DNA of 64,000 nucleotides from Candidatus Bathyarchaeia archaeon. Its GTDB lineage: Archaea; Thermoproteota; Bathyarchaeia; Bathyarchaeales; Bathycorpusculaceae. This document shows, piece after piece, positions 21,023 to 47,464 of this stretch. The stretch spans positions 1 to 64,000 of the forward strand of contig JBEKBM010000007.1 of NCBI GenBank assembly GCA_050015395.1, given 5' to 3'. Each line of letters starts with the position of its first letter. The stretch's first letter is position 1. The notes below the pieces were generated by a model. The model did no database searches. It was given only the letters and a program-made list of their open reading frames with translations, and had not been told where the DNA came from. The position numbers and the translations under genes are program-made.

Positions 21023-21613
21023 TTATGGTGGGGGAGGTAGTGGAGGCGCGCGCGCTTTTATCATTGTGATGACAGCTGTGATGACAGCTATGACAATAGC
21101 TATTAAGCTAAGAAATACGGCAATGTAAGAGGTAGTCATGTCAGACGCTTGTCCTGTTGCTCCTGTTGCTCCTGTTGCTCCTGTTGCTCCTGTTGCTCCT
21201 GTTGCTCCTGTTGCTCCCGTTGCATTTGCTCCTGTTGCTCCCGTTGCTCCTGTTGCTCCTGTCTTTCCGATGAGGTTGGGTACTGCGTAGTTTACGACTG
21301 TAGCAGCAACATTGCTTGTTAACCCTGTTGCGGTAATGTTGTAGTTCGCTCCTGCTATGCTTGTTGGGATTATTTCTGTTCCATTGATTGAGCCGTTAGA
21401 ATCTGCTGTGAGATTGTTGAAGTGGAATACGATTGCAGTTCTATTGTACAGCGTCAGGTTTACGATTTCACCAGGTGTGAATCCTGTTCCTGTAACTTGG
21501 AATATGTTGCTGTTGTTAGGAGTTGCTGTAAGCGTTGCAGTCGTTGCGTTAGCTATGGCTGTGAGGCATAGAAGTAGAGTTGCTATGATTGCTATTAGCA
21601 CGGTGGTTTTCAT
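21023..21613 (-). CDS. surface protein with collagen-like (Gly-Ala-Thr)n repeat and C-terminal TM anchor
   Basis: Signal peptide, Thr/Asn-rich beta domain, GAT triplets, TM and polyproline tail. Confidence 0.8.
21152..21262. repeat. 9-bp tandem repeat (TCCTGTTGC) encoding collagen-like triplets
   Basis: About 11 units with one interruption. Confidence 0.9.
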
Positions 21614-24870: not shown

Positions 24871-25443
24871 TTAGTAGTTTTCAACCCAAACTTCAAAATA
24901 GGCTTTCGGATGAGCGCATACAGGACATTTGTCTGGTGCTTCTTTTCCTTCAAAGACGTAACCACAGTTTTTGCATTTCCATTTGATCGGCTGATTCTTC
25001 TTGAACACTTTGCCTTGCTGCACGCTTTCAAGCAACTTATTGTACCTTCTTTCATGATAGGCTTCTACTTTTGCAACCATCCTGAACGTTGCTGCGACAT
25101 CTGGAAAACCTTCTTGTTGAGCTACATCTGCAAAGTTAGGGTAAAGTGTGCCCCACTCAAGTTTTTCTCCTTCAACTGCGGCTTTGAGGTTTTCAGCGGT
25201 TGATGCAATTACTCCTGCAGGGTAAGAAGCTTTGATTTCAACCATGCCACCCTTGAGATGCTTAAAGAAAAGTTCCGCATGCTCCTTCTCATTGCCTGAA
25301 GTCTCCTCGAAAATGCCGCCAATTTGCTCGTATCCTTCTTTTCTGGCTACGCTGGCAAAGAATGTGTATCTAGTTCGTGCTTGTGACTCGCCTGCAAACG
25401 CTGCTAAGAGGTTTTTTTCTGTTTGGCTACCAATAAAATTCAT
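24871..25443 (-). CDS. rbr: rubrerythrin
   Basis: 'AFAGESQAR', 'EKEHA', 'EAYHE', rubredoxin 'WKCKNCGY...CPVCAHP'. Confidence 0.95.
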   Translation of the reverse strand: MNFIGSQTEKNLLAAFAGESQARTRYTFFASVARKEGYEQIGGIFEETSGNEKEHAELFFKHLKGGMVEIKASYPAGVIASTAENLKAAVEGEKLEWGTLYPNFADVAQQEGFPDVAATFRMVAKVEAYHERRYNKLLESVQQGKVFKKNQPIKWKCKNCGYVFEGKEAPDKCPVCAHPKAYFEVWVENY

Positions 25444-25545
25444 GCTTATAACTCCTTATAAAATAAAGTTTCAAACCGAAAATAAAAGGGTTCCCTGCAC
25501 TCAATTCGATGTATACTCTTTTATCTCGCTTACACTAAATTGTTC

Positions 25546-25613
25546 TTGCCGGATGATGAGAAGGCATTAGCTTGACATTATTGGATGAAAGTTCAGAGTT
25601 ACTCAGACGGCAA
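25546..25613 (+). ncRNA. C/D-box 2'-O-methylation guide sRNA (predicted 23S rRNA H69 and ~1938 region)
   Basis: Terminal stem TTGCCG/CGGCAA; C box ATGATGA; guide GAAGGCATTAGC; D' TTGA; C' ATGAAAG; guide TTCAGAGTTACT complementary to recalled archaeal H69 GGUAACUCUGA; D variant CAGA. Confidence 0.7.
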
Positions 25614-26070
25614 AAGCATGGTGAACAAACAGTTACTCGGACATTAACGTCTGAGTAATTGGAGTTGTATTTCATGTACTAATCGTCTACAAGCACCTTA
25701 GAGAACTAGATTTTGCGAGAGCCGTCGAAAGCGAAGCAAAAGTAATACCAGAATTTACTATGCAGACAACTTCAAACTCGAGTTACACCCGCCAGATGTG
25801 GTGGAAGCATTCAGAAAACAAACCGTCGAAGAGGTTTACAGTCAAATTCGGCAACGAGGGAATCAAACGGCTCAAAGAAGTCGCTAAAAAAGTGAAGGTC
25901 AACAAAACGACCTGCAGGCGAGCTGCTTCAACTTTGGAAATAACCTATTACGGGTTCGTTTTGCTTCTTAAAGAAAACTGGCGCAACTGATTTGTAACGC
26001 AATCATCGCGGGATCGTCAGTTCAGATGGCGCCGAAGATAACAATTCAAACGTTTGACGAAAAATTAGTC

Positions 26071-26475
26071 TTAAGGGAGGATCTGAAGGCCCGCTTCCCT
26101 GAAGTGGCTGTCAAATGTGAACGCGTCAGGGATCAAAAGATCTTTCATCAAAGCAAAACTTGTGCAGTCTGTGAAACTCCACGATTTATGCTCAGACCGT
26201 TTGAACACATCGAGCGCTTTTTCGAACAAGCCCTCTTCTACCCAGAATACGCGAACACTCTTGCTTTTCTTGATCTTATCAATAAAAACGGAGGCTGAAG
26301 AAAGGCTTCTTCTTGACCTCAATAAAGTGAGCGTTTCGTCTAATACGTAATCAGTGGTTACGGAAATGCCGTGTTTTCCTGAGGCTATCATGGAAAGGAA
26401 CTTGCATGCTGCTTCATGATTCACGTCGTCTTCGACTTCTAGGGCATACCACGCGCTTGTATCTACGAATATCAA
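26071..26475 (-). CDS. vapC: VapC PIN-domain toxin
   Basis: 'IFVDTSAW', 'DYVLDE', 'SFTDCTSF', 'FTFDSHF'. Confidence 0.92.
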   Translation of the reverse strand: MIFVDTSAWYALEVEDDVNHEAACKFLSMIASGKHGISVTTDYVLDETLTLLRSRRSLSSASVFIDKIKKSKSVRVFWVEEGLFEKALDVFKRSEHKSWSFTDCTSFALMKDLLIPDAFTFDSHFREAGLQILP

Positions 26476-26708
26476 GTATTTTCACCATACAGATACTTAT
26501 CGTGTTCTTCAGAGCCGCGGTCTCTTTTTCCAGTTCGTCTGGAGCTGGGTGGGCTTGTAAAAATAGGGTCATTTGGGTTCACGTTACCTTCCACAGTAGT
26601 CCTGATCGCCTCACGTAGAACTTCCTTGATGGTCTTAGAGTTCCTTTTTGCGTATTCTTCGAGGAGTTTGTGCTCAGCTTCTGTAAGAGTTGTTTGTACG
26701 ACTTTCAT
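26472..26708 (-). CDS. vapB: RHH/CopG-type antitoxin
   Basis: 'KVVQTTL..EH..L..YAK....IKEVLREAI' and 'SEEHDKYLYG'; overlaps vapC start. Confidence 0.8.
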   Translation of the reverse strand: MKVVQTTLTEAEHKLLEEYAKRNSKTIKEVLREAIRTTVEGNVNPNDPIFTSPPSSRRTGKRDRGSEEHDKYLYGENT

Positions 26709-26959
26709 GTTACATCCTGAATGAAAGATGAATGATGAAAAATATAAGCTTTCCCGCACCTCGCCCACACAGGATATTGTGTCGACAGGATTTCAAACGC
26801 TACTTAAGTGAGTTACTCAGACGTTAACATACTGGAAATCAGAGTTACTCAGACGGCAACTAACTTAGCTTTTAACTCAGATAAAGGCGTGTAACCGATA
26901 GTAATTCTTAAAAGGACTATGAAACATTCTCTTACTCTATTCGTGAGGAAGAAAGATAT

Positions 26960-28570
26960 TTGGCTTCAGGTTCAGGCGTAAAAATAGTTCTTACGGCATC
27001 AGCGACAGAAATGAGCGATTTTTTTAATAATCCTTTTATCGCTTTCTTCGCAGGCTTCGGCAAGGGTCCATTTCCACTCACTTTTATGAGAAGAACAGTT
27101 TATCCCCCAGTGGAACGCAATCCTAACGGGAGAGCAAGATTTGCGCCTTACGGCTTAAGAAAAGTAGAAGCCATACTGCTAGAAAGTGGCTTTACAGAAA
27201 AAGAAGTAGCTGTGGTTCACCCTGACGACTTTGAAGACTTCATAGGACCCGAAACCAGAGTTGTGGGAATATCATCAATGGATCCAACAGGCATGGGTTA
27301 TGTAAGCAAAACTTACTCCTCAATCATTGGCGGAGGAGAACCCATGAACGCAGTCGAGTTCCAAAAACTCGTTAATAACCAAAGTATCAAAAGGTTTAAG
27401 CCAACAATTATTGTCGGCGGATTTGGTGCTTGGCAGCTGGAACGCAAAAAGGTATCTGACAGTCTCGGTGTTGATTGCGTGCTGCTCGGCGGAAGACCAG
27501 AACCAATCGTTAATGTTTTCAAGAAAGCAGTAAATGGCGAAGCTCTGCCGCGCATTGTTAAAGCTGATGAATCAATCAGCAACTGGGATTATAATGCCAT
27601 AATGCCCTTGTCTAGACATGCTGCTATTCATGGTGCGGTGGAAATTTCAAAGGGCTGTGGTAGAAACTGCCAGTTTTGCACGCCTACTATGCAACATAAA
27701 GTGGATGTGCCGCTGGAAAAAATAATGCAGGAAGTCGCTTTAACAACGGCAGACGGATGTGACCACATAACATTAGTCACAGAAGACCTGTTCTTATACG
27801 GTTCTAAAGACCAAAAATTCGTTCCAAACAAGAATGCCGTCGTAAAACTAGTAAAAAGCGTTGCTAATTATCCAGGCGTTAAAAGTATCCAAGCTTCCCA
27901 TATGTCCTTGGCGCCAGCGGTTCATAATCCGCAAATGGTAAAGGAACTTGCAGAAATACTGATTGAGCGTAGCTGGTATTCTTTTGGCAAAAAAGAGATA
28001 ATTACCGCTGAAACAGGAATTGAAACTGGCAGCACAAGATTGATGAAGAAATACATGGCTGGCAAAATGTTGCCTTTCAAGCCTGAGCAATGGCAGGAAA
28101 TTGTAGCCAACGCGTTTGGCATACTCAACGATAATAATTGGTATCCGCTGGCAACGTTGATTATTGGTCTTCCAGACGAAAAAGAAGAAGATGTGCTGCA
28201 AACGCTTGAGTTAATGGATAAATTAAAAGGCTATAATGCGTTTTATGTGCCGCTGTTCTTTGTTCCATTAGAGAACTGTGTGCTAATGAACAAGAAAGGC
28301 GCTGAAATGGATTCGCTCTCTCAAGTGCGCTGGGACCTTTTCATAAAATGCTGGGAGTACAACATTAGACTTTGGAAGCCGACTTTCCTTGAAAACCGTG
28401 TACATAATCCAATCTTGTATAAGGCTGTTGACCGTATAGTTATCCCGTATGCTGGTAGAATCGCAGGCTTCTACTACGGTTGGACACGCGGCGAACAATT
28501 AAAGCAAGCTTTCTGGACGCTGAGCATGTCTCAGCCAGCAACAGTTAAGAATAAGCAAAAATTAAGCTGA
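26960..28570 (+). CDS. B12-binding radical SAM protein
   Basis: 'GCGRNCQFC' CxxxCxxC; 'VVGISSMDP', 'GGFGAW'. Confidence 0.88.
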   Translation: MASGSGVKIVLTASATEMSDFFNNPFIAFFAGFGKGPFPLTFMRRTVYPPVERNPNGRARFAPYGLRKVEAILLESGFTEKEVAVVHPDDFEDFIGPETRVVGISSMDPTGMGYVSKTYSSIIGGGEPMNAVEFQKLVNNQSIKRFKPTIIVGGFGAWQLERKKVSDSLGVDCVLLGGRPEPIVNVFKKAVNGEALPRIVKADESISNWDYNAIMPLSRHAAIHGAVEISKGCGRNCQFCTPTMQHKVDVPLEKIMQEVALTTADGCDHITLVTEDLFLYGSKDQKFVPNKNAVVKLVKSVANYPGVKSIQASHMSLAPAVHNPQMVKELAEILIERSWYSFGKKEIITAETGIETGSTRLMKKYMAGKMLPFKPEQWQEIVANAFGILNDNNWYPLATLIIGLPDEKEEDVLQTLELMDKLKGYNAFYVPLFFVPLENCVLMNKKGAEMDSLSQVRWDLFIKCWEYNIRLWKPTFLENRVHNPILYKAVDRIVIPYAGRIAGFYYGWTRGEQLKQAFWTLSMSQPATVKNKQKLS

Positions 28571-35900: not shown

Positions 35901-35958
35901 TATGTTGAATCATATTTGAAGCATATTAGAAGCATATAGTAGACCGAGGGGGTAGGCT
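35901..35958. repeat. dispersed ~57-bp intergenic repeat, copy 2
   Basis: Near-identical to 2381-2437. Confidence 0.85.
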
Positions 35959-41271: not shown

Positions 41272-41606
41272 TTGCCCAAAGTTTTTAAAGCGTTCAGGTT
41301 TGACCCTCAACTATACGTGAATTTCAAGAAGCTAGCAAGCAAAAAACGGCTACACCGCAACCGCTGCACTTGAAAAGTTCATGGCGGGCGCAGTCCAGTT
41401 TAGGCTTGTTTTTCCGTCGGCCAAAAATGAGGCGGCGCAAGCTGAAGCGCGTGTTATGCTGGCTTGGCTCAAAGAGGGCAAATACTGGGTAAACCTCGGA
41501 GAAAAAGCTGAAACAAGCACAAAAGGACGCCTACTTCAGCTTCTGCCAGATTGAAGACGCCGATTTGCGGAGAGACATTGAAGAGACACTGAAGAAGATG
41601 ACTTAG
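41272..41606 (+). pseudogene. frameshifted RHH-like DNA-binding protein gene
   Basis: MPKVFKAFRFDPQLY..FKKLASK / NGYTATAALEKFM...EARVMLAWLKEG...LLQLLP / IEDADLRRDIEETLKKMT; two frameshifts. Confidence 0.6.
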
Positions 41607-41675
41607 CCTTTCGAGTTTTTCCCGTTGATTGTAAAGGGAAAGCTTAAAGAATTTCCGAGTGCCATATGCAGATAT

Positions 41676-42129: not shown

Positions 42130-42761
42130 AAATACTAACGTTTTGATTTTCCCAACGGCTTTTTGTCCTTTAAGTTAATGATTTTTACAACCGCGATGGT
42201 GCTTGATTTCGATTAGTCCATTGACAAAATCGCTTTTTGAGGCTTTCTTGCATAGGCTAAAGTTGCTATTGGACTATGGAAATTACTATTGCGATGCTAA
42301 AGGCTAACGCGAACTCCAGCAATGAGGTTCGAGGTGAATAATTGGGTGGCAATGGGCTAGGCGCAAGCTAAGGCTCGCGTCATGTTGGCTTGGCTCAAAG
42401 AGGGCAAATACTGGGTAAACCTCGGAGAAAAAGCTGAAACAAGCACAAAAGGACGCCTACTTCAGCTTCTGCCAGATTGAAGACGCCGATTTGCGGAGAG
42501 ACACTGAAGAGACACTGAAGAAGATGACTTAGCCCTTGAGGTTTCGGAGGCAACATGTGTTTTGGTATCACTTTCAGGCTTAAATCAGCTCTTATGCGTA
42601 ATTCACATCTGTTTCAACACGTGATAACATATCAAAAAGAAAATCTTCAAAACCTTGTCGTTAATCGCAATTTTATGGTTGATTGTACATAGGGGCTTTT
42701 AAACATCCATACCGTCACGTTGGGAATGTTCATATTTGACTGGGATGCTGTTCTATCTACG

Positions 42762-47386: not shown

Positions 47387-47464
47387 TGGTGGGCCGGACC
47401 GGATTCGGACCGGCGACCTTCTGCACGTCAAGCAGATGTCCTAACCAGGCTAGACGACCGGCCC
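47387..47464 (-). tRNA. tRNA-Val(GAC), CCA encoded, C at position 55
   Basis: GGGCCGGTCGTCTAGCCTGGTTAGGACATCTGC-TTGACGT-GCAGAAGGTCGCCGG-TCCGAAT-CCGGTCCGGCCCACCA cloverleaf. Confidence 0.93.

Follow-up and report, generated by a model that had tools for sequence, protein, structure and literature searches.

Why should the last 21 nucleotides of a small RNA gene recur, letter for letter, more than a kilobase downstream, with a toxin-antitoxin module in between? The question is posed by a 64,000-nucleotide stretch of a Candidatus Bathyarchaeia archaeon genome (GenBank assembly GCA_050015395.1, contig JBEKBM010000007.1, positions 1 to 64,000; hereafter the window), in which the gene concerned is that of a predicted box C/D small RNA (sRNA), a class of RNA that guides methylation. 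An initial annotation, made from the letters of the window, took the repeat for the mark of site-specific integration at this gene. On the evidence below we consider it highly probable that the sRNA 3′ end is a chromosomal attachment site (attB) for tyrosine integrases encoded by mobile elements, and the insert downstream would consist of the remains of two tandem elements. The case is best filed as a known mechanism, RNA-gene-targeted site-specific integration, with a new target class, across a family of uncultured archaea. Throughout, G000 denotes the 2.59-Mb genome that holds the window, other G-numbers genomes of relatives, and C-numbers contigs.

The repeat and the guide RNA gene

The 21-nt string TCAGAGTTACTCAGACGGCAA occurs exactly, as had been stated, at 25593-25613 and 26839-26859, a spacing of 1,246 bp, and an imperfect copy (76%) lies at 26807-26827. 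Block shuffling of the window (50 shuffles, counting 21-mers that occur twice) produced no repeated 21-mer, and, tandem ones aside, the 64 kb contain only two other long exact repeats, a 29-nt one (2381/35901) and the pair of paralogues at 41460/42386. A search for the central 13 nt, AGTTACTCAGACG, allowing one mismatch, finds them at four places in the locus and at one elsewhere in the genome; this last match, AGTTTCTCAGACG on C35, was rejected, its surroundings showing no further likeness, and CTCRGACRTTAAY on C29, where the rest of the motif is missing, is a chance match. The near-palindrome (25631-25660) and half site (26811-26828) of the initial annotation are real, since 25644-25658 and 26813-26827 are 15-nt segments with 100% complementarity. 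A further copy, TAACTCAGA, is present at 26873-26881 as described, but is treated as chance rather than as a related site because it is a single 9-mer absent from the closest relative, G004. Transfer RNA (tRNA) genes occur in the window only at 47387 and 60575 (ARAGORN, Rfam); the target here is neither a tRNA nor a transfer-messenger RNA (tmRNA) gene.

Full-length homologues of the sRNA (E <= 3e-8) were found in 32 of the 41 genomes searched, including 22 of the 24 other genomes of the genus, and extend to six other families of the order. A scan for its 19-nt core, allowing up to two mismatches, gave matches in 159 of 201 family genomes and in 91 of the 99 high-quality ones, and none with the reversed sequence as control. 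One layout is common to all 36 distinct homologues, with boxes and both guide stretches fixed and a loop of 4-11 nt variable in sequence. The C box reads ATGATGA in 34 and ATGACGA in two; the D box is C-N-G-A in 35 (CAGA 21, CGGA 13, CTGA 1; ATGA in the remaining one), so that its variation is confined to the second, least constrained position. A D′ box, TTGA or TAGA, stands exactly 12 nt past the C box in 36 of 36, and the C′ box is GGATGA or AGATGA; with GGATGA as C′ the D spacer measures 15 nt in every homologue, or 12 nt if C′ is taken as AUGA plus three variable bases. At least five of the six pairs of the terminal stem form in 35 of the 36, and the C box near the 5′ end, the D box near the 3′ end and the short closing stem together give the form of an archaeal C/D sRNA. 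A TATA-like motif, GCTTTTAT(C/T)T, lies at a constant distance upstream in every relative displayed and would be the promoter of the sRNA. The proteins of a C/D ribonucleoprotein (RNP) are also encoded in G000, where genes for fibrillarin (323.6 bits) and Nop5 (240.8 bits) stand side by side on C8.

No ribosomal RNA (rRNA) gene was found in the G000 assembly itself, and targets of the guides were therefore sought in the complete relatives G003 and G014. The D guide UCAGAGUUACU, the 11 nt before the D box, is the exact complement of AGUAACUCUGA inside the 23S gene (2024-2034 in G003, 2023-2033 in G014), the best ungapped match across the large- and small-subunit rRNAs of both genomes, and the fifth nucleotide upstream of the D box faces an A. 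We take this target to be the helix-69 loop of 23S by E. coli numbering, the base facing guide position 5 presumably being equivalent to A1913, a methylated position in yeast (Am2256, snR63). Within the D′ guide, the invariant stretch AAGGCAUU is complementary to AAUGCCUU, 25 nt farther on in this 23S, and two nearby targets on one rRNA are common for two-guide sRNAs. An alternative for the D′ guide at 23S position 923 (11/12 match) is less likely, as it relies on three guide bases that vary among genomes; brute-force pattern searches for targets gave mainly noise, the informative matches being those inside 23S. The sRNA is predicted to guide 2′-O-methylation in the helix-69 loop of the large subunit, and the initial call of a C/D-box sRNA is borne out by the box anatomy, by this rRNA target and by the conservation of the core, which had been named as a check.

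Empty and occupied sites, and the integrases beside them

What does the site look like where nothing has been inserted? In G003 and G021 the sRNA is directly followed by the sequence that in G000 comes after the second repeat copy (attR, the right attachment site), and then by the radical-SAM gene. From sRNA start to radical-SAM start the distance is 169 nt in G003 versus 1,415 nt here, a difference of 1,246 nt that equals the repeat spacing. In 15 of the 20 related loci compared, a rubrerythrin gene precedes the sRNA, whereas the right side varies from genome to genome. Islands bounded by 19-20 nt of the sRNA end are found in G004, G012, G002, G237, G141, G275, G343 and G320: those of G012, G002 and G237 (11-30 kb) carry an integrase gene, and the integrase-less ones (0.5-17 kb) have unrelated cargo (Table 1). 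In each of the three integrase-bearing islands the integrase lies beside the target, the target is rebuilt and a displaced 3′ fragment marks the far end; the island of G000 shares this plan with the integrase missing. Invariant gene content would have spoken against integration, and the comparison with relatives instead gave variable content to the right of a stable left flank, empty sites, and the larger integrase-bearing islands that had been proposed as a check. Two or more core matches are present in 17 of the 201 family genomes, at least seven of which, among the matches listed, have both on one contig and strand, 0.5-56 kb apart; G012 holds one full sRNA copy plus one core-only copy. The gas-vesicle cluster of the G141 island looks complete and is flanked by the sRNA and the core copy.

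The integrase gene of G012, G002 and G237 encodes 432-449 amino acids and starts about 50 nt past the sRNA, and its score against PF00589 lies above the gathering cut-off of 27.1 bits in G237 and G012 and just below it in G002. Intact integrase genes are also seen beside the sRNA in G009 and G239, and broken or partial copies in G256, G162 and G248. A scan of one genome per species recovered relatives at 12 loci, the sRNA being directly upstream in nine; all come from Bathyarchaeia or Bathyarchaeota metagenome-assembled genomes bar two labelled otherwise, probably through binning. Close homologues adjoin the sRNA in three genera with different left flanks, and even in G226 and G237, members of other genera whose left flanks are unrelated, the integrase adjoins the sRNA. 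What the integrase accompanies is therefore the RNA gene itself rather than its genomic surroundings. Residues R156, K187, H274, R277, H298 and Y307 are invariant in the 10 aligned integrases, and from the order of the motifs we take them to be the catalytic R-K-H-R-H-Y set. The sole solved relative by sequence is the XerC-like recombinase 4a8e (E 3e-5). The integrase ORFs (open reading frames) are whole beside the left attachment site (attL), with the core about 50 nt upstream of the start codon, and hence the arrangement is not the split one of SSV-type integrases. Past the catalytic tyrosine all ten share a conserved tail of some 125 residues (308-432 of P0001), which is unusual for tyrosine recombinases. 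G000 itself has a paralogue, 62% identical, at C8:2958-4241 (minus strand), which adjoins other sequence and not the sRNA. Such paralogues (59-63% identical; G000 C8 and G013 C1) lie at a palindrome, GCACCC-TTTAGC-GGGTGC, followed by TAATTATATATAC, which on C8 directly follows the stop codon of a gene resembling those for acidic ribosomal stalk proteins; their different site suggests a switch of target within the integrase family.

The junctions beside integrases read AGTTACTCAGAC GGCAA(C) GTCTGGGAAAC, that is, two inverted arms of 11-12 bp with a short spacer between them, in what appears to be the classic core layout of tyrosine recombinases set on the D box and 3′ terminal stem. In other element types the right arm at this position takes variant forms (AGGGTGAATAAC, CGTATGATAAAC, TATCTGACTAAC, GGTACGACTAAC), and in every island examined a second palindromic site stands right before the distal core, in which two arms, the second of them ending in AAT, flank a spacer such as GTTAAC. 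The identity block common to both island ends is TCAGAGTTACTCAGACGGCA (20 nt). The base that follows belongs to the flanks (sRNA and far end read GGCAC and GGCAA in G004, GGCAA and GGCAT in G012), which puts the crossover within those 20 nt; the dyad centre would place it at the 3′ stem half. We propose that the integrase binds the 12-bp arms, AGTTACTCAGAC in the sRNA and its inverted copy on the element, and that strand exchange would take place in or beside GGCAA, the 3′ half of the terminal stem. The element would come with a duplicate of roughly 20 nt from the sRNA end and leave the displaced copy at the far border, and integration would thereby rebuild the sRNA gene.

The 1,246-bp insert of G000 comprises a 76-amino-acid ORF and vapBC, and ends in an element-type arm (26807-26838) whose 32 nt differ little from the arms in G004, G012 and G002. 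The insert therefore derives from an element of the same family, whose integrase has been lost. Low-stringency tblastn of the insert gave no integrase remnant better than E 0.04, and neither insert nor window holds a relative of this integrase; with no integrase gene left, the insert is probably fixed. The repeats do enclose vapBC, as first described, a PIN-domain toxin gene with a small overlapping antitoxin gene upstream, as in type II VapBC toxin-antitoxin systems (the true start of the vapB-like gene is probably the ATG near 26708), but the accompanying "gene debris" is the small ORF, which has relatives of its own. In build and in left border (aacaaac/gaaaaca), the palindrome at 25631-25660 corresponds to the arm site lying against the distal core in G141, G343, G012 and G002, and a degenerate core, TGGAGTTGTATTTCA, comes after it. 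The palindrome probably represents the end of an earlier, lost element, now about 50 bp long, in tandem with the vapBC remnant; a first element would thus have been reduced to this arm palindrome, and a second to the small ORF, vapBC and the arm at 26807-26838. Repeated integration, as initially proposed, is likewise suggested by the several element arms present at the site in relatives and in peat contigs. On another contig of G004 (C46, near position 2361, in window orientation) a vapBC module 93% identical to this one ends in AGTTACTCAGAC-GTTAAT-GTCTGTGCAAT plus a degenerate core, and may mark a secondary integration site or a module that has moved.

Table 1. Features of the locus (window coordinates) and islands at the same site in related genomes (length from sRNA to distal core copy or of the island).
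Feature	Position or length	Strand	Remarks
Rubrerythrin gene	24871..25443	-	PF02915, 102 bits; stable left flank of the site
TATA-like box CTTTTATCT	25518..25526	+	About 24 nt before the sRNA 5′ end; putative promoter
Box C/D sRNA gene	25546..25613	+	Layout fits 36/36 distinct homologues
sRNA 5′ stem TTGCCG			
C box ATGATGA	25553-25559		
D′ guide	25560-25571		12-nt spacer
D′ box TTGA	25572-25575		Followed by variable loop
C′ box GGATGA	25583-25588		
D spacer/guide	25589-25603		Ends in CAGAGTTACT
D box CAGA	25604-25607		
sRNA 3′ stem CGGCAA	25608-25613		
attL core	25593..25613	+	Last 21 nt of sRNA: end of D guide, D box, 3′ stem half
Putative first-element relic	25614..25680	+	17-nt spacer, palindromic arm site, degenerate core
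Palindromic arm site AGTTACTCGGAC-ATTAAC-GTCTGAGTAATT	25631-25660		Within the relic
76-amino-acid ORF, cargo	25760..25990	+	No Pfam match; DNA relatives 66-72% identical at other loci of relatives
vapC, PIN-domain toxin, cargo	26071..26475	-	PF01850, 46.6 bits
vapB-like antitoxin	26472..26768	-	4-nt overlap with vapC; DUF6290, 20.6 bits, below cut-off
Element-side arm GAGTTACTCAGAC-GTTAAC-ATACTGGAAA	26807..26838	+	Adjoins attR; position and sequence kept in G004, G012 and G002 islands
attR core	26839..26859	+	Displaced copy of sRNA 3′ end, exact; then flank matching the post-sRNA flank of empty G003, G021
Radical-SAM gene	26960..28570	+	PF04055; right chromosomal flank
G012 island	14.4 kb		Integrase after sRNA, PF00589 27.4 bits
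G002 island	30.2 kb		Integrase after sRNA, PF00589 26.5 bits
G237 island	11.3 kb		Integrase after sRNA, PF00589 42.8 bits
G004 island	6.2 kb		No integrase; carbonic anhydrase, CobW-like protein, two B12 radical-SAM enzymes
G141 island (C5:547800-566200)	16.7 kb		No integrase; GvpA, three GvpF/L, AAA proteins, Hsp70, CDC48, Hsp20
G275 island	2.7 kb		No integrase; NosD-like beta-helix protein
G343 island	1.0 kb		No integrase
G320 island	0.5 kb		No integrase

Population data and competing explanations

The source archaeon is a peat-soil dweller, and 23 peat and wetland DNA runs contain most of the locus, four of which were mapped onto it. Depth in the sRNA bin is 2-7 times that of neighbouring bins in these four, one unitig is identical to 25546-25613, and peat metagenome contigs with the sRNA continue past 25612/25613 into arms of other element types (CTGGAGTAGTAACTATAAATA, CGGGTGAATAACTTTCG). 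A loose end at 25642, in the palindrome, was considered as a recombination breakpoint and set aside, as it is equally well the diverged same-arm homologue of another strain. One contig from an RNA library covers 25500-25612 at a depth of 7.2 and continues into flank of the empty-site type, the flanking genes being uncovered; it begins upstream of the TATA-like box and is therefore at best a weak hint of transcription. Expression of the sRNA, on which the initial annotation had made its proposal depend, is thus weakly indicated.

Several observations count against the sRNA 3′ end being an attB, or against the 68-nt element being an sRNA at all. On the RNA side, the D box is CAGA or CGGA with the canonical CTGA in just one of 36 homologues, the D spacer is 15 and not 12 nt on the best reading of C′ (GGATGA), and no Rfam family is matched at gathering score, the best being SNORD45 with 19.3 bits versus a cut-off of 42. 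Neither the terminal stem nor the pairing of guide with target displays a compensatory change, and genomes whose guides have an A at position -1 retain the unchanged 23S sequence; moreover, the pairing was read in the 23S of relatives and not of G000, and DNA carry-over may account for the sole RNA-library contig, with its start upstream of the presumed promoter. On the side of mobility, the Pfam scores of the G012 and G002 integrases are at the cut-off, no contig of the mapped metagenome runs bridges across the G000 insert, and a search with a 28-nt attL string returned two integrated forms from metagenome contigs and none from viral contigs, with no excised circle or element attachment site (attP).

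Could the 68 nt then be a protein-binding DNA site, Xer/dif-like or regulatory, on which C/D-like boxes are a coincidence? The missing Rfam match, the unusual D box and spacer and the infirm expression data would all fit, as would the palindromic 12-6-12 arm sites, which seem to resemble dif sites in layout. Yet the absence from Rfam bears on the naming of a family and not on its class, because few archaeal sRNA families are in Rfam, and six of the eight sub-threshold matches are CD-box snoRNA models, full-length and on the same strand. Variation among homologues also follows the logic of an RNA, with fixed boxes and guides, a variable loop and changes at D-box position 2 only; the D guide matches 11 nt of 23S and the conserved D′ part matches 25 nt away, the TATA-like box keeps its distance, and the empty attB is not palindromic. 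We regard a DNA site as very unlikely.

Highly improbable, too, is that the sRNA travels as cargo with the integrase instead of being its chromosomal target. This would account for an sRNA that is always directly upstream of the integrase gene, even where the left flank differs. Against it, G003 and G021 have the sRNA at empty sites, where there is no element, and its left neighbour is rubrerythrin in most of the loci compared; its core occurs in 159 of 201 family genomes, as against full-length integrase homologues (at least 59% identity) in six of 251 order genomes and broken or partial ones in four more, and G012 combines a full copy with a core-only one. That the 21-nt repeat arose by local duplication or illegitimate recombination, with no site-specific integration, could appeal to a short insert and to the lack of an integrase in insert or window, but is scarcely credible given that the 32-nt arm of the insert is the same as in the integrase-bearing islands of G012 and G002, that the limits of the repeat are the same in eight other genomes, and that its spacing is exactly the size difference from the empty site.

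Known systems, wider meaning and other features of the window

With integration into the sRNA 3′ end as the preferred reading, known systems can be set beside it. P2-like phages integrate into bacterial small-RNA genes such as rybB, and there too attB is a non-tRNA small RNA gene, whose last bases make up the core; they differ in that the target is a bacterial Hfq-type regulatory sRNA and the element a phage, versus an archaeal RNP guide RNA and islands (G012, G002, G237) without recognisable virus genes. Genomic islands and proviruses that tyrosine integrases insert into the 3′ part of tRNA or tmRNA genes show, as here, an integrase gene beside a small stable RNA gene, a copy of the 3′ end that rebuilds the gene, a displaced fragment at the far border, tandem integrations that decay, and variable cargo (Islander, PMC4383910; PMC8371274). 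Those islands differ from ours in their target, which here is a C/D guide RNA with the core on D guide, D box and terminal stem rather than on the anticodon or T arm, and the att identity here is short (20-21 nt). Non-suicidal archaeal integrases resemble the present ones, whole beside attL in G012, G002 and G237, whereas in SSV-type (suicidal) integrases the gene is split on integration and attP lies inside the ORF (PMC8371274; PMC7253208); the conserved tail after the catalytic tyrosine may set the present family apart from the former.

Nothing in the openly accessible full texts searched, some of them consulted in excerpt, presents a C/D sRNA gene as a target for integration. The pertinent passages of a 2021 review of archaeal tyrosine recombinases (PMC8371274) nowhere use the words sRNA, snoRNA or non-coding RNA; corresponding parts of a Thaumarchaeota survey list 39 tRNA, 15 intergenic and 14 protein-gene targets (PMC6563490), those of a Bathyarchaeia virus paper name integrases and not their sites (PMC10848311), and elsewhere the passages at hand give tRNA genes only (PMC3218864). 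Part of the "intergenic" archaeal att sites may be unannotated sRNA or guide RNA genes. Site-specific integration in prokaryotes has been mapped almost wholly via tRNA and tmRNA genes, on which island finders rely, and a conserved guide RNA as attB across a Bathyarchaeia family adds a target class. The sRNA provides a simple island marker in a lineage without cultured members and with few known mobile elements, where the islands found carry a 16.7-kb gas-vesicle cluster, surface-protein sets and metabolic genes, and a defined set of attB, attP and integrase could become a genetic tool.

The sRNA 3′ ends beside elements differ: G248 has the D box ATGA in place of CNGA, and in G004 the last stem base is C in place of A. 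Integration may thus alter the guide RNA. As a tentative proposal, somewhat less probable than its opposite, C/D guide-RNA genes might be a general, overlooked class of integration targets in Archaea, whose incoming elements can rewrite the sRNA 3′ end given that the integrase arm extends over D guide, D box and terminal stem, the changes from GGCAA to GGCAC in G004 and to the D box ATGA in G248 possibly altering helix-69 methylation.

A last claim of the initial annotation, that AGTTACTC in the attL of what it termed a satellite hints at a related recombinase, falls away: about two occurrences of an 8-mer are expected in a window of this size, the best match in the window outside the locus (7627, two mismatches) lies inside an ABC-ATPase-like ORF, and the window has no integrase relative. 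Among its other repeats, the 29-nt exact direct repeat (2381-2409 and 35901-35929), with about 90 nt of extended similarity, has its copies 33.5 kb apart and brackets the studied locus; they may be leaders or promoters of paralogues, or else the termini of a further element. The near-identical 118-nt plus 30-nt repeat at 41460-41608 and 42386-42534, 926 bp apart, probably reflects adjacent paralogous genes, and a 9-nt tandem repeat, (TCCTGTTGC)n at 21152-21230, probably encodes a repetitive peptide.

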